Shown piece after piece: positions 41,413 to 46,412 of a stretch of DNA of 64,000 nt (the first letter of the stretch is position 1; each line of letters begins with the position of its first letter). The DNA is taken from the IMG/VR virus record IMGVR_UViG_638275429_000001, positions 23,740 through 87,739 of that record. One strand, written 5' to 3'. Below the pieces are notes generated by a model. That model saw only the letters and a program-made list of their open reading frames with translations. It was not told the origin of the DNA and ran no database searches. Made by a program: the position numbers and the translations under genes. Source of the stretch: a virus (lineage: Duplodnaviria > Heunggongvirae > Uroviricota > Caudoviricetes > Straboviridae).

Positions 41413-41622
41413 TTAATAAAGTGCCCGGAGTAGAGCCTGTTGTTTACGTTTCAATTTCTGTTCTTCAGTGAGCTCTTCCTCAGGGATTTGCTCTTTAACT
41501 ACGCCAACTTTCTTTTTCGGACCAGTGCTATCCCACAGTGGTGAGTTGTACCAGTTTGCGTTATTTCCATTAGCGCCGCCACGACCCTCTCGAGCGTGTG
41601 ATTTCTCGTGCATCATTGCCAT
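41413..41622 (-). CDS. hypothetical basic protein (69 aa)
   Basis: ORF. Confidence 0.4.
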   Translation of the reverse strand: MAMMHEKSHAREGRGGANGNNANWYNSPLWDSTGPKKKVGVVKEQIPEEELTEEQKLKRKQQALLRALY

Positions 41623-41639
41623 GCGTGTTTCTCATTAAT

Positions 41640-41716
41640 TGGTGGTCCCTATTGGATTCGAACCAATGACCAACGACTTAGAACGACGTTGCTCTGTCCA
41701 GCTGAGCTAAGAGACC
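41640..41716 (-). tRNA. tRNA-Arg (anticodon TCT)
   Basis: 7-bp acceptor GGTCTCT/AGGGACC + A + CCA; D-arm GCTCAGCTGGACAGAGC; anticodon loop GTTCTAA; T-arm ATTGG-TTCGAAT-CCAAT. Confidence 0.6.
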
Positions 41717-41733
41717 AATTGAACGAAAGGCTT

Positions 41734-42183
41734 TTAACCAGCCTGAAGACTATCTCGAACTCTGTACAGATTTGAGCAAAATTCTTGCTCTGTTAGAACA
41801 GTTTCGTTTTTCTTGTTTTTGCCCATTGAATGGGTCAATGAAGAATTCCGGGTTGCCAGAATAGCTCGTTTGAAACCAGAATTCTTCGAAACTTCGTCGT
41901 AAGCGCGGCTAATAAGTTCCGAATACGCGTCACTTTGTCGGTGCATCGGTTTGCCACGCCAATAGAGAGTTTGGTCTCGCCACCAGTTTTTCTTTTTGCC
42001 TTTAAACTTCGCAGCTTTACCGACTAAAGAGCAAACATGCTCTTGCATCTCAGGCGATTTGAATTTAAGAGATTGCAAAAATCCTTCAATCGAGGCGCAA
42101 CGAACACCATCAATATAGAATTCATGAGGAGCGAAGTTACTTAATGCGCAGGATGGCCAAGAGGCACCAGAACCGATGTCCAT
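41734..42183 (-). CDS. NADAR-domain protein (YbiA/DUF1768 family; NAD/ADP-ribose-associated N-glycosidase)
   Basis: 149 aa; SNFAPHEFYIDGVRCASIEGFLQSLKF matches NADAR N-terminal signature (SNFyp..F..dG..y.S.EhyfQa.Kf). Confidence 0.6.
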   Translation of the reverse strand: MDIGSGASWPSCALSNFAPHEFYIDGVRCASIEGFLQSLKFKSPEMQEHVCSLVGKAAKFKGKKKNWWRDQTLYWRGKPMHRQSDAYSELISRAYDEVSKNSGFKRAILATRNSSLTHSMGKNKKNETVLTEQEFCSNLYRVRDSLQAG

Positions 42184-42199
42184 AACAAATATCTCACTT

Positions 42200-42568
42200 T
42201 TAAAGGGATTGTGTGAAAGTTCGCGTGATTACGTCCCGTTGTTGCTCAGGAGTTAATGCATTAAAGCGTACGGCATAACCGGAAACACGGATGGTTAGTT
42301 GGGGATATTTTTCTGGATTAACGATTGCATCTTCCAGGGTATTTCGGTCAAGAACATTTACGTTGAGATGCTGACCACCTTCAACAGTTGGCTCCGGCTG
42401 AACGTCAAAGAAACGTCCTGGGCGTCCACGAATAACCGAATCTTCGACGATAGTGTCGATTTCATAAGTTTTCGAAGCGATCACCTTGGCATTATTTGTC
42501 TGATCATCTACCAGGAAAATTGATCCATGATCATTCGAGCCATCAAGCAATTGGAAACCAATTAACAT
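42200..42568 (-). CDS. grcA: autonomous glycyl-radical cofactor GrcA/YfiD homolog (start uncertain: ATG at 42568 or TTG at 42637)
   Basis: C-terminal [61 protein letters not shown] nearly identical to E. coli GrcA; RVSGY glycyl radical motif. Confidence 0.85.
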
Positions 42569-42593
42569 ATTGTCCTCACTTTGTGGTGTAATC

Positions 42594-42672
42594 TGGTGGA
42601 TTTGGACCGGTCTCGAACCGACATCATCAGGATGCAAAGCAACCTACGGTCTTCCCATTAAACGACAAATCC
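42594..42672 (-). tRNA. tRNA-like element, type undetermined (atypical anticodon arm)
   Basis: perfect acceptor GGATTTG/CAAATCC + A + CCA, D-arm with GG, TTCGAGA T-loop; anticodon stem has mismatches; overlaps N-terminal homology region of GrcA ORF. Confidence 0.35.
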
Positions 42673-42684
42673 ATGATATTAATT

Positions 42685-42759
42685 TGGTGGCCCTGGCAGG
42701 AATCGAACCTGCTACGAGCGGTTATGAGCCGCCTGCTTGAACCGTCTAGCTACAGGGCC
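42685..42759 (-). tRNA. tRNA-Met or Ile2 (anticodon CAT)
   Basis: acceptor GGCCCTG/CAGGGCC + A + CCA; anticodon arm GGCGG-CTCATAA-CCGCT; T-arm GCAGG-TTCGATT-CCTGC. Confidence 0.7.
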
Positions 42760-42966
42760 TAGAGACGAAAAAGCCCATAACGGTCGATTGACAAGTCATG
42801 GGCATTGTTTTAATTAGGACGCTTGCTAGGGTCTCGAACCCATCACGAATATACGCACGTGTAGACTGCCAGACAACAAGTACTTAGTAAGCTAATTAAT
42901 GGTACTCACGGTGCACCGCTTTCACATATTTCGCTATTTTCCCACGTCTAAGCAAGCGATTGAAAT

Positions 42967-43043
42967 TGGATGCGACGGATGGATTCGAACCACCGATTTC
43001 CGGGATATGAGCCCGACGAGGACGACCTCTCCTCTACGTCGCA
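42967..43043 (-). tRNA. tRNA-Met or Ile2 (anticodon CAT), second copy
   Basis: acceptor TGCGACG/CGTCGCA + T + CCA; anticodon arm TCGGG-CTCATAT-CCCGG; T-loop TTCGAAT. Confidence 0.6.
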
Positions 43044-43065
43044 TTTGAATCTTGAGAATTTAGAG

Positions 43066-43138
43066 CGGAGCCACCGAGGATCGAACTCGGTGCTATCCCG
43101 TGACAGGGGATTATTTTAACCGTATAAACTATGGCTCC
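43066..43138 (-). tRNA. tRNA-Asp (anticodon GTC), CCA not encoded
   Basis: acceptor GGAGCCA/TGGCTCC + G; anticodon arm ATCCC-CTGTCAC-GGGAT; T-arm CCGAG-TTCGATC-CTCGG. Confidence 0.7.
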
Positions 43139-43211
43139 GCTCTAAACTCTGTTTTGGTATGAGTTAATCATATCATGAATTCAGATGTTTGAAACAAAAT
43201 GCTTTAAATCT

Positions 43212-43299
43212 TGGCGGAGAAGGAGAGATTCGAACTCTCGAAACCTTTCGGTTTACTTCCTTAGCAGGGAAGCGATTTAAACCGCTCATCCACTTCTCC
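43212..43299 (-). tRNA. tRNA-Ser (anticodon GCT), type II with long variable arm
   Basis: acceptor GGAGAAG/CTTCTCC + G + CCA; anticodon arm CTTCC-CTGCTAA-GGAAG; variable arm TAAACCGAAAGGTTTC; T-arm GAGAG-TTCGAAT-CTCTC. Confidence 0.7.
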
Positions 43300-43306
43300 T
43301 AGAATT

Positions 43307-43382
43307 TGGTAGTGGATACTGGGGTCGAACCAGTGCGCTCTCGATTATCGGTCGAGTGCTCTACCTACTGAGCTAATCCACT
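43307..43382 (-). tRNA. tRNA-Ile (anticodon GAT)
   Basis: acceptor AGTGGAT/ATCCACT + A + CCA; D-arm GCTCAGTAGGTAGAGC; anticodon arm CTCGA-CCGATAA-TCGAG; T-arm ACTGG-TTCGACC-CCAGT. Confidence 0.7.
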
Positions 43383-43384
43383 AT

Positions 43385-43460
43385 TGGCATGACATCAAGG
43401 ATTCGAACCCTGGCCGCACGGTTTTGGAGACCGGCATGCTACCGCTAACACCAATGTCAT
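43385..43460 (-). tRNA. tRNA-Trp (anticodon CCA), one mismatch in anticodon stem
   Basis: acceptor ATGACAT/ATGTCAT + G + CCA; anticodon loop CTCCAAA; T-arm CAGGG-TTCGAAT-CCTTG. Confidence 0.5.
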
Positions 43461-43616
43461 ATAAATCGATCTGGACGCACCATTTCCAGACAAAACCTCG
43501 TCGGAGGCCAAGGGCCAACAAGATATGATACAGACCGACGTCCTCGTCATATCCAGATGGTCTTCCCTTTTACTTTACGCTCGGGTCTTTTTCAAGAAAT
43601 CCGAACATTAACGTAA

Positions 43617-45102: not shown

Positions 45103-45178
45103 TGGAGCGGGTAGCCGGTATCGAACCGGTCTACTCAAGCTTGGAAGGCTAGCATGTATCCGTAAACACCTTACCCGC
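45103..45178 (-). tRNA. tRNA-Gly (anticodon TCC)
   Basis: acceptor GCGGGTA/TACCCGC + T + CCA; anticodon loop CTTCCAA; T-loop TTCGATA. Confidence 0.6.
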
Positions 45179-45385: not shown

Positions 45386-45461
45386 TGGTACACCGTCTGA
45401 GATTCGAACTCAGAACCAACGGATTAAAGGTCCGCTACTCTGCCAATTGAGTTAACGATGC
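45386..45461 (-). tRNA. tRNA-Lys (anticodon TTT)
   Basis: acceptor GCATCGT/ACGGTGT (2 wobble) + A + CCA; D-arm ACTCAATTGGCAGAGT; anticodon arm GCGGA-CCTTTAA-TCCGT; T-arm CTGAG-TTCGAAT-CTCAG. Confidence 0.65.
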
Positions 45462-46025
45462 TCTTAAAAACTGTCTATCTTTATTTCTTTCGGTATTAAA
45501 GATTCGCAAAACGTCATCGAGCTGAGTTGAAGTGTTATCTACCCACTCGCCGTTTGCACCAAACATAAAATGCAGTTGTTTTTCTGTCTTAAAGCGGTCA
45601 TGGGTAAAGAAGTATGTTTGAATTTTATAATCACGAAATGGCGAATAACTTTGATATGTAGCCAATCGGTCGTATACTGATATGGTGCTGCCAATTTTAA
45701 AATGTCCAGGCCAAGCCGGATTGGTTAACACATATACATAACCTTCGCGAATACTAGAAGCTTTACCTAATCGATTATATTTAACATTTAGTAATGATCT
45801 ACGAACGTAGTTCAATTGCGAGCAAACACTCTTAATATAAGATGAGTTTTTGCGTAAAAATGGCAACTTAGTTGTGCGATATATGTGATTGAAGAAAATT
45901 CTTTTAACGAGATCATCTGTTATTTCAAAGTCGTAACAAGCGCACTCAAGTTCTAGATAAGTTGAATATCGAGCAATCACATCATTCATAATAAATTTCC
46001 ACAATTTAGTGCAACGGAATTCCAA
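45435..46025 (-). CDS. T5orf172/MUG113 (GIY-YIG-like) domain protein, putative homing-endonuclease-like mobile gene in tRNA cluster
   Basis: 196 aa; C-terminal GYVYVLTNPAWPGHFKIGSTISVYDRLATYQ matches T5orf172 signature (GxVYxxxN...KIGxT....R). Confidence 0.5.
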   Translation of the reverse strand: MEFRCTKLWKFIMNDVIARYSTYLELECACYDFEITDDLVKRIFFNHIYRTTKLPFLRKNSSYIKSVCSQLNYVRRSLLNVKYNRLGKASSIREGYVYVLTNPAWPGHFKIGSTISVYDRLATYQSYSPFRDYKIQTYFFTHDRFKTEKQLHFMFGANGEWVDNTSTQLDDVLRIFNTERNKDRQFLRASLTQLAE

Positions 46026-46064: not shown

Positions 46065-46147
46065 TGGTGGAACGCCTTGGACTCGAACCAAGAATGCCAG
46101 AGGCGAGCGGGTTACAGCCGCTTGGGATACCATTACCCGAACGTTCC
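46065..46147 (-). tRNA. tRNA-Tyr (anticodon GTA), type II
   Basis: acceptor GGAACGT/GCGTTCC + A + CCA; anticodon arm AGCGG-CTGTAAC-CCGCT; long variable arm; T-arm CTTGG-TTCGAGT-CCAAG. Confidence 0.7.
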
Positions 46148-46327: not shown

Positions 46328-46412
46328 GGTTGCTGGAAGGATTCGAACCTTCGAGGTCTTTCAACCCGTCCCGTTTCCAGGGACCGCCTTCAGCCACTCG
46401 GCTCACAGCAAC
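46328..46412 (-). tRNA. type II tRNA (Ser/Leu class), anticodon loop TGGAAAC (GAA/GGA ambiguous)
   Basis: acceptor GTTGCTG/CAGCAAC + C; 3-bp D-stem with 11-nt loop; anticodon stem GTCCC/GGGAC; variable hairpin GGGTTGAAAGACC; T-arm GAAGG-TTCGAAT-CCTTC. Confidence 0.5.

Follow-up and report, generated by a model that had tools for sequence, protein, structure and literature searches.

The stretch of DNA analysed here (64,000 nt; hereafter, the window) is 100% identical to Aeromonas phage 44RR2.8t (hereafter, 44RR), and the open reading frame (ORF) of interest, which ends at 42200 on the minus strand and has two candidate starts (TTG 42637 and ATG 42568), is gene vs.6 of that phage, annotated there from the ATG. 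The gene and its neighbours are laid out as follows.

41734..42183, minus strand: gene 30.3, the downstream neighbour (Pfam Phage_30_3, E 2e-55)
42200..42568, minus strand: vs.6 coding sequence, 122 aa plus stop (annotated as NP_932473.1 in NC_005135)
42569..42593, minus strand: non-coding spacer of 25 nt between the CCA end of the tRNA-like gene and the vs.6 ATG
42573..42577, minus strand: putative Shine-Dalgarno sequence GAGGA, 4 nt 5' of ATG 42568, read from the sequence
42594..42672, minus strand: unannotated tRNA-like RNA gene, 79 nt (Rfam tRNA model, covariation)
42672-42666 with 42604-42598, minus strand: its acceptor stem, 7 bp, perfect
42663-42649, minus strand: its D arm
42646-42628, minus strand: its long 'anticodon' hairpin
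42632..42642, minus strand: the 11-nt loop of the anticodon-like arm, UUGCUUUGCAU
42638-42635, minus strand: the 4-nt insert UUUG in that loop, which includes the supposed TTG start (42637-42635)
42622-42605, minus strand: its T arm, with one bulged U
42597 and 42596-42594, minus strand: its discriminator A and its CCA
42673..42684, minus strand: spacer AATTAATATCAT, 12 nt, between tRNA-Ile2 and the tRNA-like gene
42685..42759, minus strand: tRNA-Ile2 (lysidine type, anticodon CAU), next to the tRNA-like gene on its upstream side in the array (ARAGORN; Rfam, 58.4 bits; note in NC_005135)

The protein encoded by vs.6 carries the Pfam Gly_radical domain (E 9e-17; protein residues 62-103, i.e., 85-126 of the 145-aa ORF), with its presumed radical glycine, G97, in the motif RVSGYAV, at the position of G102 of E. 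coli GrcA. Members of the GrcA/YfiD class are stand-alone proteins of ~14 kDa that are essentially the C-terminal glycyl-radical domain of pyruvate formate-lyase (PFL), and Vs.6 is likewise small and stand-alone (122 aa) and aligns to PFL residues 694-759. It is also collinear with GrcA over the full length, N-terminal domain included, both in the end-to-end alignment of its residues 1-122 with residues 1-127 of the E. coli YfiD structure 6OWR_A (HMMER, E 5e-35) and in a multiple alignment of bacterial and phage members. The best-scoring family is NCBIfam TIGR04365, although its score of 144.8 bits does not reach the 170 bits set as the curated threshold for GrcA equivalogs, because the N-terminal half is divergent (28% identity). 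We regard Vs.6 as a predicted glycyl-radical spare-part protein of the GrcA/YfiD type, as the preliminary description of this locus had proposed, which differs from E. coli GrcA in being phage-encoded, in lying inside a tRNA cluster and in two deletions.

Homologues of Vs.6 were found in 1,581 phage records, all database homologues being 120-127 aa long, and the gene was reported in 6 of 6 early T4-like genomes (PMC1524935). The T4 counterpart named in the 44RR record, Vs.6 (= Y06I), is of similar size (120 vs. 122 aa) and shares with the 44RR protein the same N-terminal indels and the motifs G(S/T)I(F/Y) and SK-T(Y/F); identity between the two is 33% in the N-terminal part and 84% in the C-terminal part, and T4 vs.6, unlike the 44RR gene, is flanked by vs.5 and vs.7 at a long distance from the tRNA genes. 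Both E. coli YfiD and T4 Y06I are described as validated PFL spare parts that are activated by PFL activase and rescue oxygen-cleaved PFL in PMC8683613, which cites Wagner et al. 2001. A search for papers that treat phage-encoded GrcA as an auxiliary metabolic gene came up empty. The vs.6 gene itself offers little that is new, being annotated in the 44RR2.8t genome and having a T4 homologue that is a well-known PFL spare part.

The start of vs.6 bears directly on how the gene relates to the adjoining element, since the preliminary description held that GrcA homology continues upstream of the ATG and that either the gene uses a TTG start inside a tRNA gene or a tRNA was inserted into, or eroded, its 5' end. 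Met 42568 falls on Met1 of GrcA in the MAFFT alignment, in a global BLOSUM62 alignment and in the HMMER alignment to 6OWR; it coincides with Met1 of the bacterial and phage homologues in the multiple alignment, and the closest homologues (P0002-P0005, 72-85% identical) begin at the same Met. The lineage of P0005 lacks the tRNA-like element, and its homologue follows another ORF with a TAATG overlap. The Shine-Dalgarno region, agtgaggacaatATG, is kept in the closest syntenic relatives (L023-L026), whereas no properly spaced Shine-Dalgarno sequence was found 5' of TTG 42637. The frame is open for 23 codons ahead of the ATG in 44RR, which might be taken to favor initiation at the TTG and, with it, a real gene/RNA overlap and a 145-aa protein, as might the score of 13 (BLOSUM62; background fraction, 0.0014) of the 14 upstream codons against the N-terminus of E. 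coli GrcA. However, the TTG falls within the one part of the RNA that varies and reads CTG or AGT in relatives. In L023-L026, the spacer has lost 1 nt (ccacaagtgagg vs. ccacaaagtgagg), which shifts the upstream frame; the shifted frame reaches a stop just 18 codons upstream and offers none of ATG, GTG and TTG as a start. Taking these observations together with the full-length GrcA alignment that opens at the ATG and the uniform length of the homologues, we consider the TTG start barely credible.

A related scenario begins with a captured bacterial grcA whose 5' end was altered by insertion of a tRNA or recombination with one, leaving QITPQSEDN as a decaying N-terminal relic and the ATG as a secondary start. 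In its favor, the upstream codons locally resemble GIQITKAANDD (9 of 23 residues identical in the register of the preliminary description), and the interval is a recombination hot spot, with vs.6 present or absent and endonuclease ORFs at the same place. Yet nothing is missing from the N-terminus of Vs.6, because the protein that starts at the ATG is already collinear with a complete GrcA N-terminus (M-x-x-G-x-Q...ND), and the alternative register, when forced, gives a global score of 299 instead of 317 and opens large gaps mid-protein. Further, the upstream similarity falls to background against Aeromonas GrcA, with a score of 5 that is matched by 2.5% of random 14-mers from the window (fraction 0.025), and the tRNA-like element, being unchanged in phages without vs.6, is older than, or independent of, vs.6 at this site. 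This scenario is therefore very unlikely in our estimation. For the likeness of the 14 upstream codons to the E. coli GrcA N-terminus, chance is the sole explanation on hand. Judged from these comparisons, vs.6 is predicted to initiate at ATG 42568, and the two genes are simply adjacent and do not overlap. Such plain adjacency was the outcome that the preliminary description had set against its own reading, except that it expected a normal tRNA in that case, and the anticodon arm of the element is aberrant.

The age of the gene can be judged from the contrast between its two halves and between its protein and DNA. The preliminary description saw a protein nearly identical to bacterial GrcA, the C-terminal 60 residues of which differ from the E. 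coli protein at a handful of positions, and concluded that the gene was recently captured from a gamma-proteobacterial host. The count is roughly right (52 of the last 60 residues are identical, i.e., 8 differences), but overall identity to any bacterial GrcA is 57-61%, and it is no more than 28% in the N-terminal half, which has phage-type indels, two of them in common with T4-type Vs.6. The C-terminal glycyl-radical domain is, moreover, near-invariant across the family. A late capture from Aeromonas or another gamma-proteobacterium could be argued from the 56-57 of 61 C-terminal residues (93%) that are identical to Aeromonas GrcA, including shared host-type residues (NALT...), and from the known occurrence of such exchange in T4, where the last 185 nt of vs.6 are 97% DNA-identical to E. 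coli grcA, a recent DNA-level import of the glycyl-radical domain. In 44RR, however, the same domain is 72-73% identical in DNA to Aeromonas grcA with synonymous sites saturated, the same codon being used at 28-34% of the shared residues, third positions agreeing at 17-21 of 61, and GC3 being 0.36 as opposed to 0.59-0.83 in Aeromonas grcA. A recent capture is thus highly improbable, and we favor the view that vs.6 of 44RR represents an old phage lineage of the gene, as its sequence and its spread among phages suggest. The contrast between the recently swapped domain of T4 and the saturated synonymous sites of 44RR means that high protein identity in the radical domain cannot be used as a sign of recent transfer.

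The element 5' of vs.6 folds as the preliminary description had noted, i.e., as a tRNA-like molecule with a perfect 7-bp acceptor stem plus CCA and an aberrant anticodon arm. In the acceptor stem, GGATTTG pairs with CAAATCC, followed by the A and CCA, and 7 of 7 pairs are standard in the six variants known, three of them covarying. Similar to canonical tRNAs (RF00005), among which T4 tRNA-Gly(UCC) is the closest, the element also has a D arm with GG in the loop, a TTCGA T loop and cloverleaf covariation. The canonical anticodon arm (5-bp stem, 7-nt loop, U33, purine 37 and a conserved anticodon) is, in contrast, absent: the arm has a 4-bp stem and the 11-nt loop or, in an alternative fold, forms a 9-bp hairpin with a triloop. 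In all variants the loop reads UUGC+NNNN+CAU, with UUUG, UCUG or UAGU as the insert, and removal of the insert leaves UUGCCAU, the canonical Gly(GCC) loop. The T stem departs from the norm as well, with G-C at 53-61 plus the bulged U in the 44RR type and a U-C or U-U mismatch in the other type at that position, where tRNAs have G-C. The single-sequence fold is no stabler than that of shuffled sequences (z = -0.38).

Detection programs treat the element as marginal. Its Rfam tRNA (RF00005) score is 29.5 bits vs. a gathering score of 29, the weakest of 16 tRNA matches in the window, while the real tRNAs of the array score 34-66 bits; three of four relatives (IME13, B614 and L024) reach 31.5-33.2 bits, and phage 25 falls below the reporting limit. 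ARAGORN, which the preliminary description had proposed to run on the element, called no tRNA at default settings in any of the six variants (0 of 6), whereas with -i -ps80 it reported tRNA-Gly(gcc) with a 4-nt insert in 5 of 6. Relaxed runs gave inconsistent anticodons (Lys, Ser or 'unknown') for different variants with the same acceptor stem. A covariance model of the element scored 47 bits on T4 tRNA-Gly and at most 37 bits on every other tRNA. The gene is new in that it is unlisted in the dozen annotated records inspected and has no feature name in the 41 matching records.

The element is conserved in these 41 phage records, with or without vs.6. Among 18 loci that represent two genera of T4-like phages of Aeromonas, it occurs as six distinct variants. 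RNAalifold on the variants returns the cloverleaf; 97% of the cloverleaf cells are paired, and five pairs show compensatory double changes (three in the acceptor stem and two in the T stem) compared to none in slid controls, with the qualification that there are only these six variants, in two clades, and that the three acceptor-stem double changes could represent one event or a recombinational swap. Neither the 17 tRNAs nor the rest of the window contained a paralogue of the 44RR-type acceptor and T arms or a sequence that could have donated them; therefore, gene conversion from a resident tRNA is unsupported. Within the central 44 nt, variable columns are confined to the 4-nt insert, and neighbouring true tRNAs differ between the same phages in which the rest of this core is invariant. 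The element is also kept at the same place in the two genera despite repeated insertions and deletions nearby, always 16-25 nt 5' of the next ribosome-binding site. An exact-pattern scan of IMG/VR for further variants matched solely phage 25 and 60AhydR15PP, with no new variant, and a scan of JGI metagenomes gave eight matches to an 18-mer, all unrelated chance matches, and again no new variant. A conserved mini-ORF in the element (15 aa in 44RR) was considered and dismissed, as phage 25 stops earlier and there is no ribosome-binding site.

The surroundings of the element have been reshaped repeatedly. In phages without vs.6, gene 30.3 directly follows the tRNA-like gene on its 3' side (synteny of B614, AS4, phage 25, IME13, Aes012, phiAS4, 50AhydR13PP and Asfd_1). 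On the 5' side, IME13 and 50AhydR13PP have an endonuclease ORF at the position of the spacer AATTAATATCAT, and 11 of the 12 nt of the spacer are identical to the 11 nt of that ORF that immediately precede the element. Phages without an endonuclease history have an ATTT spacer between tRNA-Ile2 and the tRNA-like gene. Judging by this match, the 44RR spacer (42673..42684) has the look of a scar or junction left by a homing-endonuclease ORF. A consensus promoter/terminator scan of 41500-43500 revealed nothing convincing between tRNA-Ile2 and vs.6, and a MotA-box/middle-promoter reading of TTGCTTTGC was ruled out by eye, given its wrong spacing to any -10-like hexamer. Beyond the element, a long-loop terminator hairpin at 42803-42768, which the consensus scan had missed, was spotted by eye and confirmed by covariation, and a separate 139-nt rnaC-like RNA lies at 42958-42820.

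What the element does, if anything, admits of several answers. It might be a dead, functionless pseudogene of a tRNA-Gly-type gene that was killed by the 4-nt insertion and persists through phage kinship; the rejection by ARAGORN, the Rfam score that barely reaches the threshold, the abnormal loop, the T-stem bulge or mismatch, the lack of a conserved anticodon and the small number of known variants (only six) would all be in keeping with such a fate, and among the tRNAscan-SE results of a 2006 survey there is one 'Pseudo' for 44RR, the location of which is not given (PMC1524935). Nevertheless, the compensatory changes in the acceptor and T stems, the core that stays invariant outside the insert while nearby true tRNAs differ, and the retention of the same location in two genera argue against decay, and we view a pseudogene as unlikely, albeit as a reading to be taken seriously. 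A working decoding tRNA, e.g., a Gly tRNA or a frameshift/extended-anticodon suppressor, is suggested by the cloverleaf, the encoded CCA, the D-loop GG, the TTCGA T loop and the insert flanks, which together would make a Gly(GCC) loop. This possibility is hard to reconcile with the 11-nt loop (or triloop hairpin) and with the inconsistent relaxed ARAGORN assignments across variants that have a common acceptor stem. In addition, the bacterial glycyl-tRNA synthetase (GlyRS) identity set consists of U73 and C2:G71, which the A73 and G2:C71 of the element do not match. Decoding is, on balance, very improbable indeed. An Ala(UGC) reading of the loop (UUUGCAU) was likewise tried and rejected, as it breaks down in phage 25 and a G3-U70 pair is lacking.

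Hence, we favor the hypothesis, which we hold to be quite probable, that two independent genes adjoin each other in the tRNA cluster of 44RR2.8t: an old phage vs.6 starting at ATG 42568, and a tRNA-Gly-derived gene for a processed, non-decoding RNA. From the sequence evidence at hand, such an RNA is most likely what the tRNA-like gene specifies. According to this model, the RNA gene would descend from a gene of the tRNA-Gly type whose anticodon loop gained a 4-nt insert; the insert gives a long hairpin with an 11-nt loop, and the RNA therefore could not decode. Its acceptor and T stems are upheld by the compensatory substitutions, and the encoded CCA is kept. The RNA would be transcribed with the tRNA array and excised by the tRNA-processing machinery, with RNase P presumably cutting the 5' end and endo- or exonucleolytic trimming taking place at the CCA end, and excision would both produce a small stable RNA and free the vs.6-30.3 mRNA with a short leader. 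On the protein side, by analogy to E. coli YfiD and T4 Y06I, we infer that the host PFL activase would place a glycyl radical on G97 of Vs.6, which could then dock on oxygen-cleaved host PFL and thereby restore acetyl-CoA and formate production during micro-oxic infection.

It is tempting to go one step further and propose that the RNA is a functional, processed, non-decoding tRNA mimic in the two genera, the intact acceptor/T-arm half and the invariant D and anticodon stems of which engage a tRNA-binding factor of host or phage, the anticodon being reduced to a hairpin tip that is free to vary. We deem this more specific proposal improbable at present. If true, the RNA could, for instance, sequester a host enzyme as a decoy or sponge, be it a tRNA-directed defence nuclease or a modification enzyme, and also serve as processing punctuation that frees the vs.6/30.3 mRNA.

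Non-tRNA small RNA genes within T4-type tRNA clusters have precedents in T4 rnaC (species 1) and rnaD (species 2), small stable RNAs of the tRNA cluster whose function is unknown (PMC9697503). As in the 44RR element, the structure of rnaC includes a T arm like that of tRNAs and a terminal stem; the two T4 RNAs are, however, 139 and 119 nt long, whereas the element is tRNA-sized (79 nt). In a blastn comparison, the element shared with rnaC just the generic T-loop word GGTTCGA and had no match in rnaD; therefore, the element is no homologue of either. Our search of the literature on rnaC and tRNA-like RNAs found general background only.

In conclusion, this is an ordinary locus with one modest new RNA. 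For vs.6, the useful outcomes are negative, that is, there is no gene/tRNA overlap, no odd start codon and no recent host capture, as far as sequence comparison tells. The tRNA-like gene, missed by ARAGORN, combines compensatory changes with a variable hairpin tip in place of an anticodon. As such, the element would join T4 rnaC and rnaD as a small non-coding RNA of T4-type tRNA clusters, and may represent a tractable candidate for finding out what such RNAs do.

The tRNA-like element beside the glycyl-radical gene of the window is a real, unannotated and conserved RNA adjoining vs.6, a phage gene that was already known and that the preliminary description had recognised correctly. From 41600 to 43100 the sequence matches Aeromonas phage 44RR2.8t (44RR; Straboviridae, Biquartavirus) and its re-sequenced twins at 100% identity, and phage 31, avDM1, avDM2 and avDM5 at 98.5%; NC_005135 annotates the ORF as gene vs.6 (NP_932473.1, 'similar to T4 NP_049730.1; matches Pfam Gly_radical') with its start at the ATG at window position 42568. 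The gene sits within a minus-strand array of 17 tRNA genes, in the local order tRNA-Met, a 200-nt gap, tRNA-Ile2(CAU), the tRNA-like element, vs.6, gene 30.3 and tRNA-Arg.

Features of the array discussed here.
42958-42820, minus strand: unannotated structured RNA of ~139 nt, between tRNA-Met and tRNA-Ile2
42803-42768, minus strand: hairpin plus T-run after the ~139-nt RNA, covarying and terminator-like
42672-42594, minus strand: tRNA-like element
42568-42200, minus strand: vs.6
45435-45989, minus strand: annotated ORF ST44RRORF121c (184 aa) with T5orf172 / MUG113 domains (E 6e-10 and 3e-11), which we take to be GIY-YIG-like, of the homing-endonuclease type

The vs.6 ORF carries a Gly_radical domain (E 9e-17), and its product matches E. 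coli GrcA (YfiD; sequence read off an E. coli chromosome) at 52 of the last 60 residues, which bears out the strong C-terminal conservation reported initially. The radical glycine of YfiD, G102, has its counterpart in G97 of the RVSGYAV motif. The two validated spare parts are E. coli YfiD and T4 Vs.6 (Y06I), both activated by the PFL activase and able to restore oxygen-cleaved PFL (PMC8683613, citing Wagner et al. 2001). By analogy with these two proteins, we infer that 44RR Vs.6 would act by the same spare-part mechanism; T4 Y06I is functional despite an N-terminal half as divergent as that of 44RR Vs.6. On the NCBIfam GrcA equivalog, 44RR Vs.6 scores 144.8 bits, below the curated cut-off of 170.

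Homology to GrcA had also been proposed to run upstream of this ATG, but every alignment begins at Met 42568. When the 145-aa ORF (the ATG-initiated frame extended to TTG 42637) is aligned by MAFFT to its nearest phage homologues and to GrcA of Aeromonadaceae, Pseudaeromonas, Vibrio and enterobacteria, its Met24 falls on Met1 of every homologue, the bacterial proteins included, and the 14-residue phage N-terminus pairs with MVKGIQITESANNA / MITGIQITKAANDD. Global BLOSUM62 alignment to E. coli GrcA likewise sets this Met on Met1, and HMMER against the YfiD structure 6OWR aligns Vs.6 residues 1-122 with 1-127. The proposed register paired FQLLD with FWLLD, whereas the true one pairs IFLVDD with FWLLDS; with the former imposed, the global score drops from 317 to 299 and large gaps appear mid-protein. 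Against the E. coli GrcA N-terminus, the 14 codons before the ATG score 13 (reached by 0.14% of random 14-mers from the window), and against Aeromonas GrcA only 5 (reached by 2.5%); the likeness is mild and due to chance.

The suggested TTG start within a tRNA gene fares no better. The TTG at 42637 makes up three of the four nucleotides holding the only variable positions in the RNA core, and its site reads CTG or AGT in relatives. In four metagenomic phage loci (L023-L026), where Vs.6 is 85% identical, the gene order is as in the window and agtgaggacaatATG is kept, one A has been lost from the spacer, so the in-frame upstream stretch is a different peptide there; its 18 codons back to the stop contain no ATG, GTG or TTG. 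In a more distant lineage (P0005, 72% identical), an ordinary ORF precedes vs.6 and overlaps it at TAATG, and there is no tRNA-like element. A GAGGA motif lies 4 nt 5' of ATG 42568. The proposed overlap between vs.6 and the element is explained away. In contrast to it, the array does contain a genuine ORF/tRNA overlap: the 3' end of ST44RRORF121c overlaps the 5' part of tRNA-Lys (45386-45461) by 27 nt.

Nor was vs.6 recently captured from a gamma-proteobacterial host, as had been inferred from the C-terminal identity. This identity is uninformative because the columns concerned are (nearly) invariant across the whole family. The C-terminal 61 residues of Vs.6 are 87%, 93% and 84% identical to E. 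coli GrcA, Aeromonadaceae GrcA and T4 Vs.6, respectively, vs. 28% (E. coli or Aeromonadaceae GrcA) and 33% (T4 Vs.6) for the N-terminal 61. At the DNA level, the C-terminal 183 nt share only 72-73% identity with grcA of A. bestiarum, A. dhakensis and A. sobria, the same codon is used at only 28-34% of shared amino acids, and 17-21 of 61 third positions match; synonymous sites are saturated. GC3 is 0.36 in the phage gene vs. 0.59-0.83 in host grcA. Homologues occur in 1,581 phage records and were found in six of six T4-like genomes in 2006 (PMC1524935), and two indels are common to the 44RR clade and T4-type Vs.6. Among Aeromonas phage records, close homologues were seen only in the 44RR/31/avDM1, 2, 5 subgroup; the metagenomic L023-L026 phages have the gene as well.

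Unlike 44RR vs.6, T4 vs.6 (NC_000866 63557-63919; T4 locus L033 858-1220, minus strand) is a mosaic of recent origin. Over the final 185 nt (IEGGQH to stop) it shows 97% DNA identity to E. coli grcA (L031 402-586) with sharp boundaries, and the same codon at 55 of 59 shared residues, while its N-terminal half has no DNA match and 31% protein identity, indicating that the radical domain was recently exchanged between T4 and its host. Each phage's radical domain (the C-terminal half of vs.6; 42200-42385 in 44RR) follows its own host group in the residue variants it carries: NALT... in 44RR, like Aeromonadaceae, and NSLT...DVIARTFTESL in T4, like E. coli. These came by DNA exchange in T4; in 44RR there is no DNA similarity, which suggests selection of the radical domain to match the host PFL and activase.

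In the tRNA-like element the acceptor stem is a perfect 7 bp, followed by discriminator A and an encoded CCA; the D arm contains GG, the T loop reads TTCGA and the T stem holds one extra nucleotide. The aberrant anticodon arm noted initially is a 4-bp stem with an 11-nt loop, which can alternatively form a 9-bp hairpin with a triloop. The tRNA-like element of the preliminary description is thereby borne out, but it cannot be a normal decoder. ARAGORN makes no call for it. It scores 29.5 bits on the Rfam tRNA model (gathering score 29), the weakest of 16 matches in the window (the others, 34-66 bits), and its single-sequence fold is no better than shuffled (z = -0.38). In every variant the anticodon loop reads UUGC+NNNN+CAU, the insert being UUUG, UCUG or UAGU; without it the loop is UUGCCAU, a canonical Gly(GCC) loop. 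With a lowered threshold and introns allowed, ARAGORN reads five of six variants as this loop with a 4-nt insert, and without introns it returns Lys, Ser or 'unknown' for variants with the same acceptor stem. With a covariance model built from the element, all family members score 100-106 bits, T4 tRNA-Gly(UCC) 47 bits and every other tRNA compared ≤37 bits. The element is best described as a tRNA-Gly-type paralogue with a 4-nt insert in the anticodon loop. A73 and G2:C71 would be at odds with the bacterial glycine identity set.

BLAST matches to the element come from 41 phage records, each of a T4-like Aeromonas or 'Stenotrophomonas' phage in the genus Biquartavirus or Tulanevirus; it is annotated in none of the dozen records inspected, and no feature name lies under the match in the remaining hit tables. 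The inspected relatives without vs.6 (B614, AS4, phage 25, IME13, Aes012, phiAS4, 50AhydR13PP and Asfd_1) carry it at the same place, 16 nt 5' of gene 30.3. The main rival explanation is that the element is a pseudogene of recent origin. Against this speak the compensatory changes among its six distinct variants (18 loci): 97% of cells are standard pairs of the cloverleaf, both partners have changed in three pairs of the acceptor stem (A-U to G-C, U-A to C-G, G-C to U-A) and in two of the T stem (one more goes from U-G to C-G), and slid controls (partners shifted by 1-3 columns) give no double changes. A cloverleaf with four helices also comes independently from RNAalifold. The 44-nt core (D arm, anticodon stem and variable region), invariant save for three adjacent loop columns, also argues against a pseudogene, although with only two clades the independent compensatory events are few.

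Several other tRNAs of the array are atypical, since tRNA-Tyr and tRNA-Phe (ARAGORN; 46065-46147 and 46328-46412, minus strand) go unreported by the Rfam tRNA model at the gathering threshold and tRNA-Gly(UCC) (45103-45178) reaches only 34 bits. For 44RR, 'Ala UGC' but not 'Gly UCC' appears in Table 4 of PMC1524935, probably through a slip in the table; both the GenBank record and ARAGORN give Gly UCC without any Ala. Both the terminal stem (CGCTTGCT/AGCAAGCG) and the T arm (GGGTTCGAGACCC) of the ~139-nt RNA are tRNA-like; this RNA is kept with compensatory changes in B614, AS4, phage 25, IME13, Aes012 and L023, and resembles T4 rnaC (species 1 RNA, 139 nt) in architecture and length, without sequence similarity. 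Between tRNA-Ile2 and the tRNA-like gene, IME13 (L006 1907-2659) and 50AhydR13PP (L009 805-1557) have a 250-aa endonuclease ORF (weak Pfam matches to Phage_endo_I and C2H2 zinc fingers), whose last 15 codons enter the RNA gene and end at a TGA belonging to the anticodon stem's 3' strand. This ORF is absent from 44RR, where the spacer 42673-42684 retains its final 11 nt (ATTAATATCAT) and looks like a deletion scar.

As for how the RNA most likely works, the selected parts would be those read by tRNA-processing enzymes (acceptor arm, T arm and CCA), the element lies 4-12 nt after tRNA-Ile2 and always 16-25 nt before a ribosome-binding site, and scanning for consensus promoters and terminators turned up none between the element and its neighbours. 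From these features we infer that it would be co-transcribed with the tRNA array and excised by RNase P and 3' trimming, which would produce a small, stable RNA and set the 5' terminus of the message for vs.6-30.3 (or 30.3). The excised RNA may have a function in trans, like the still unexplained T4 rnaC and rnaD (PMC9697503). The tRNA-like RNA next to vs.6 is of modest interest.
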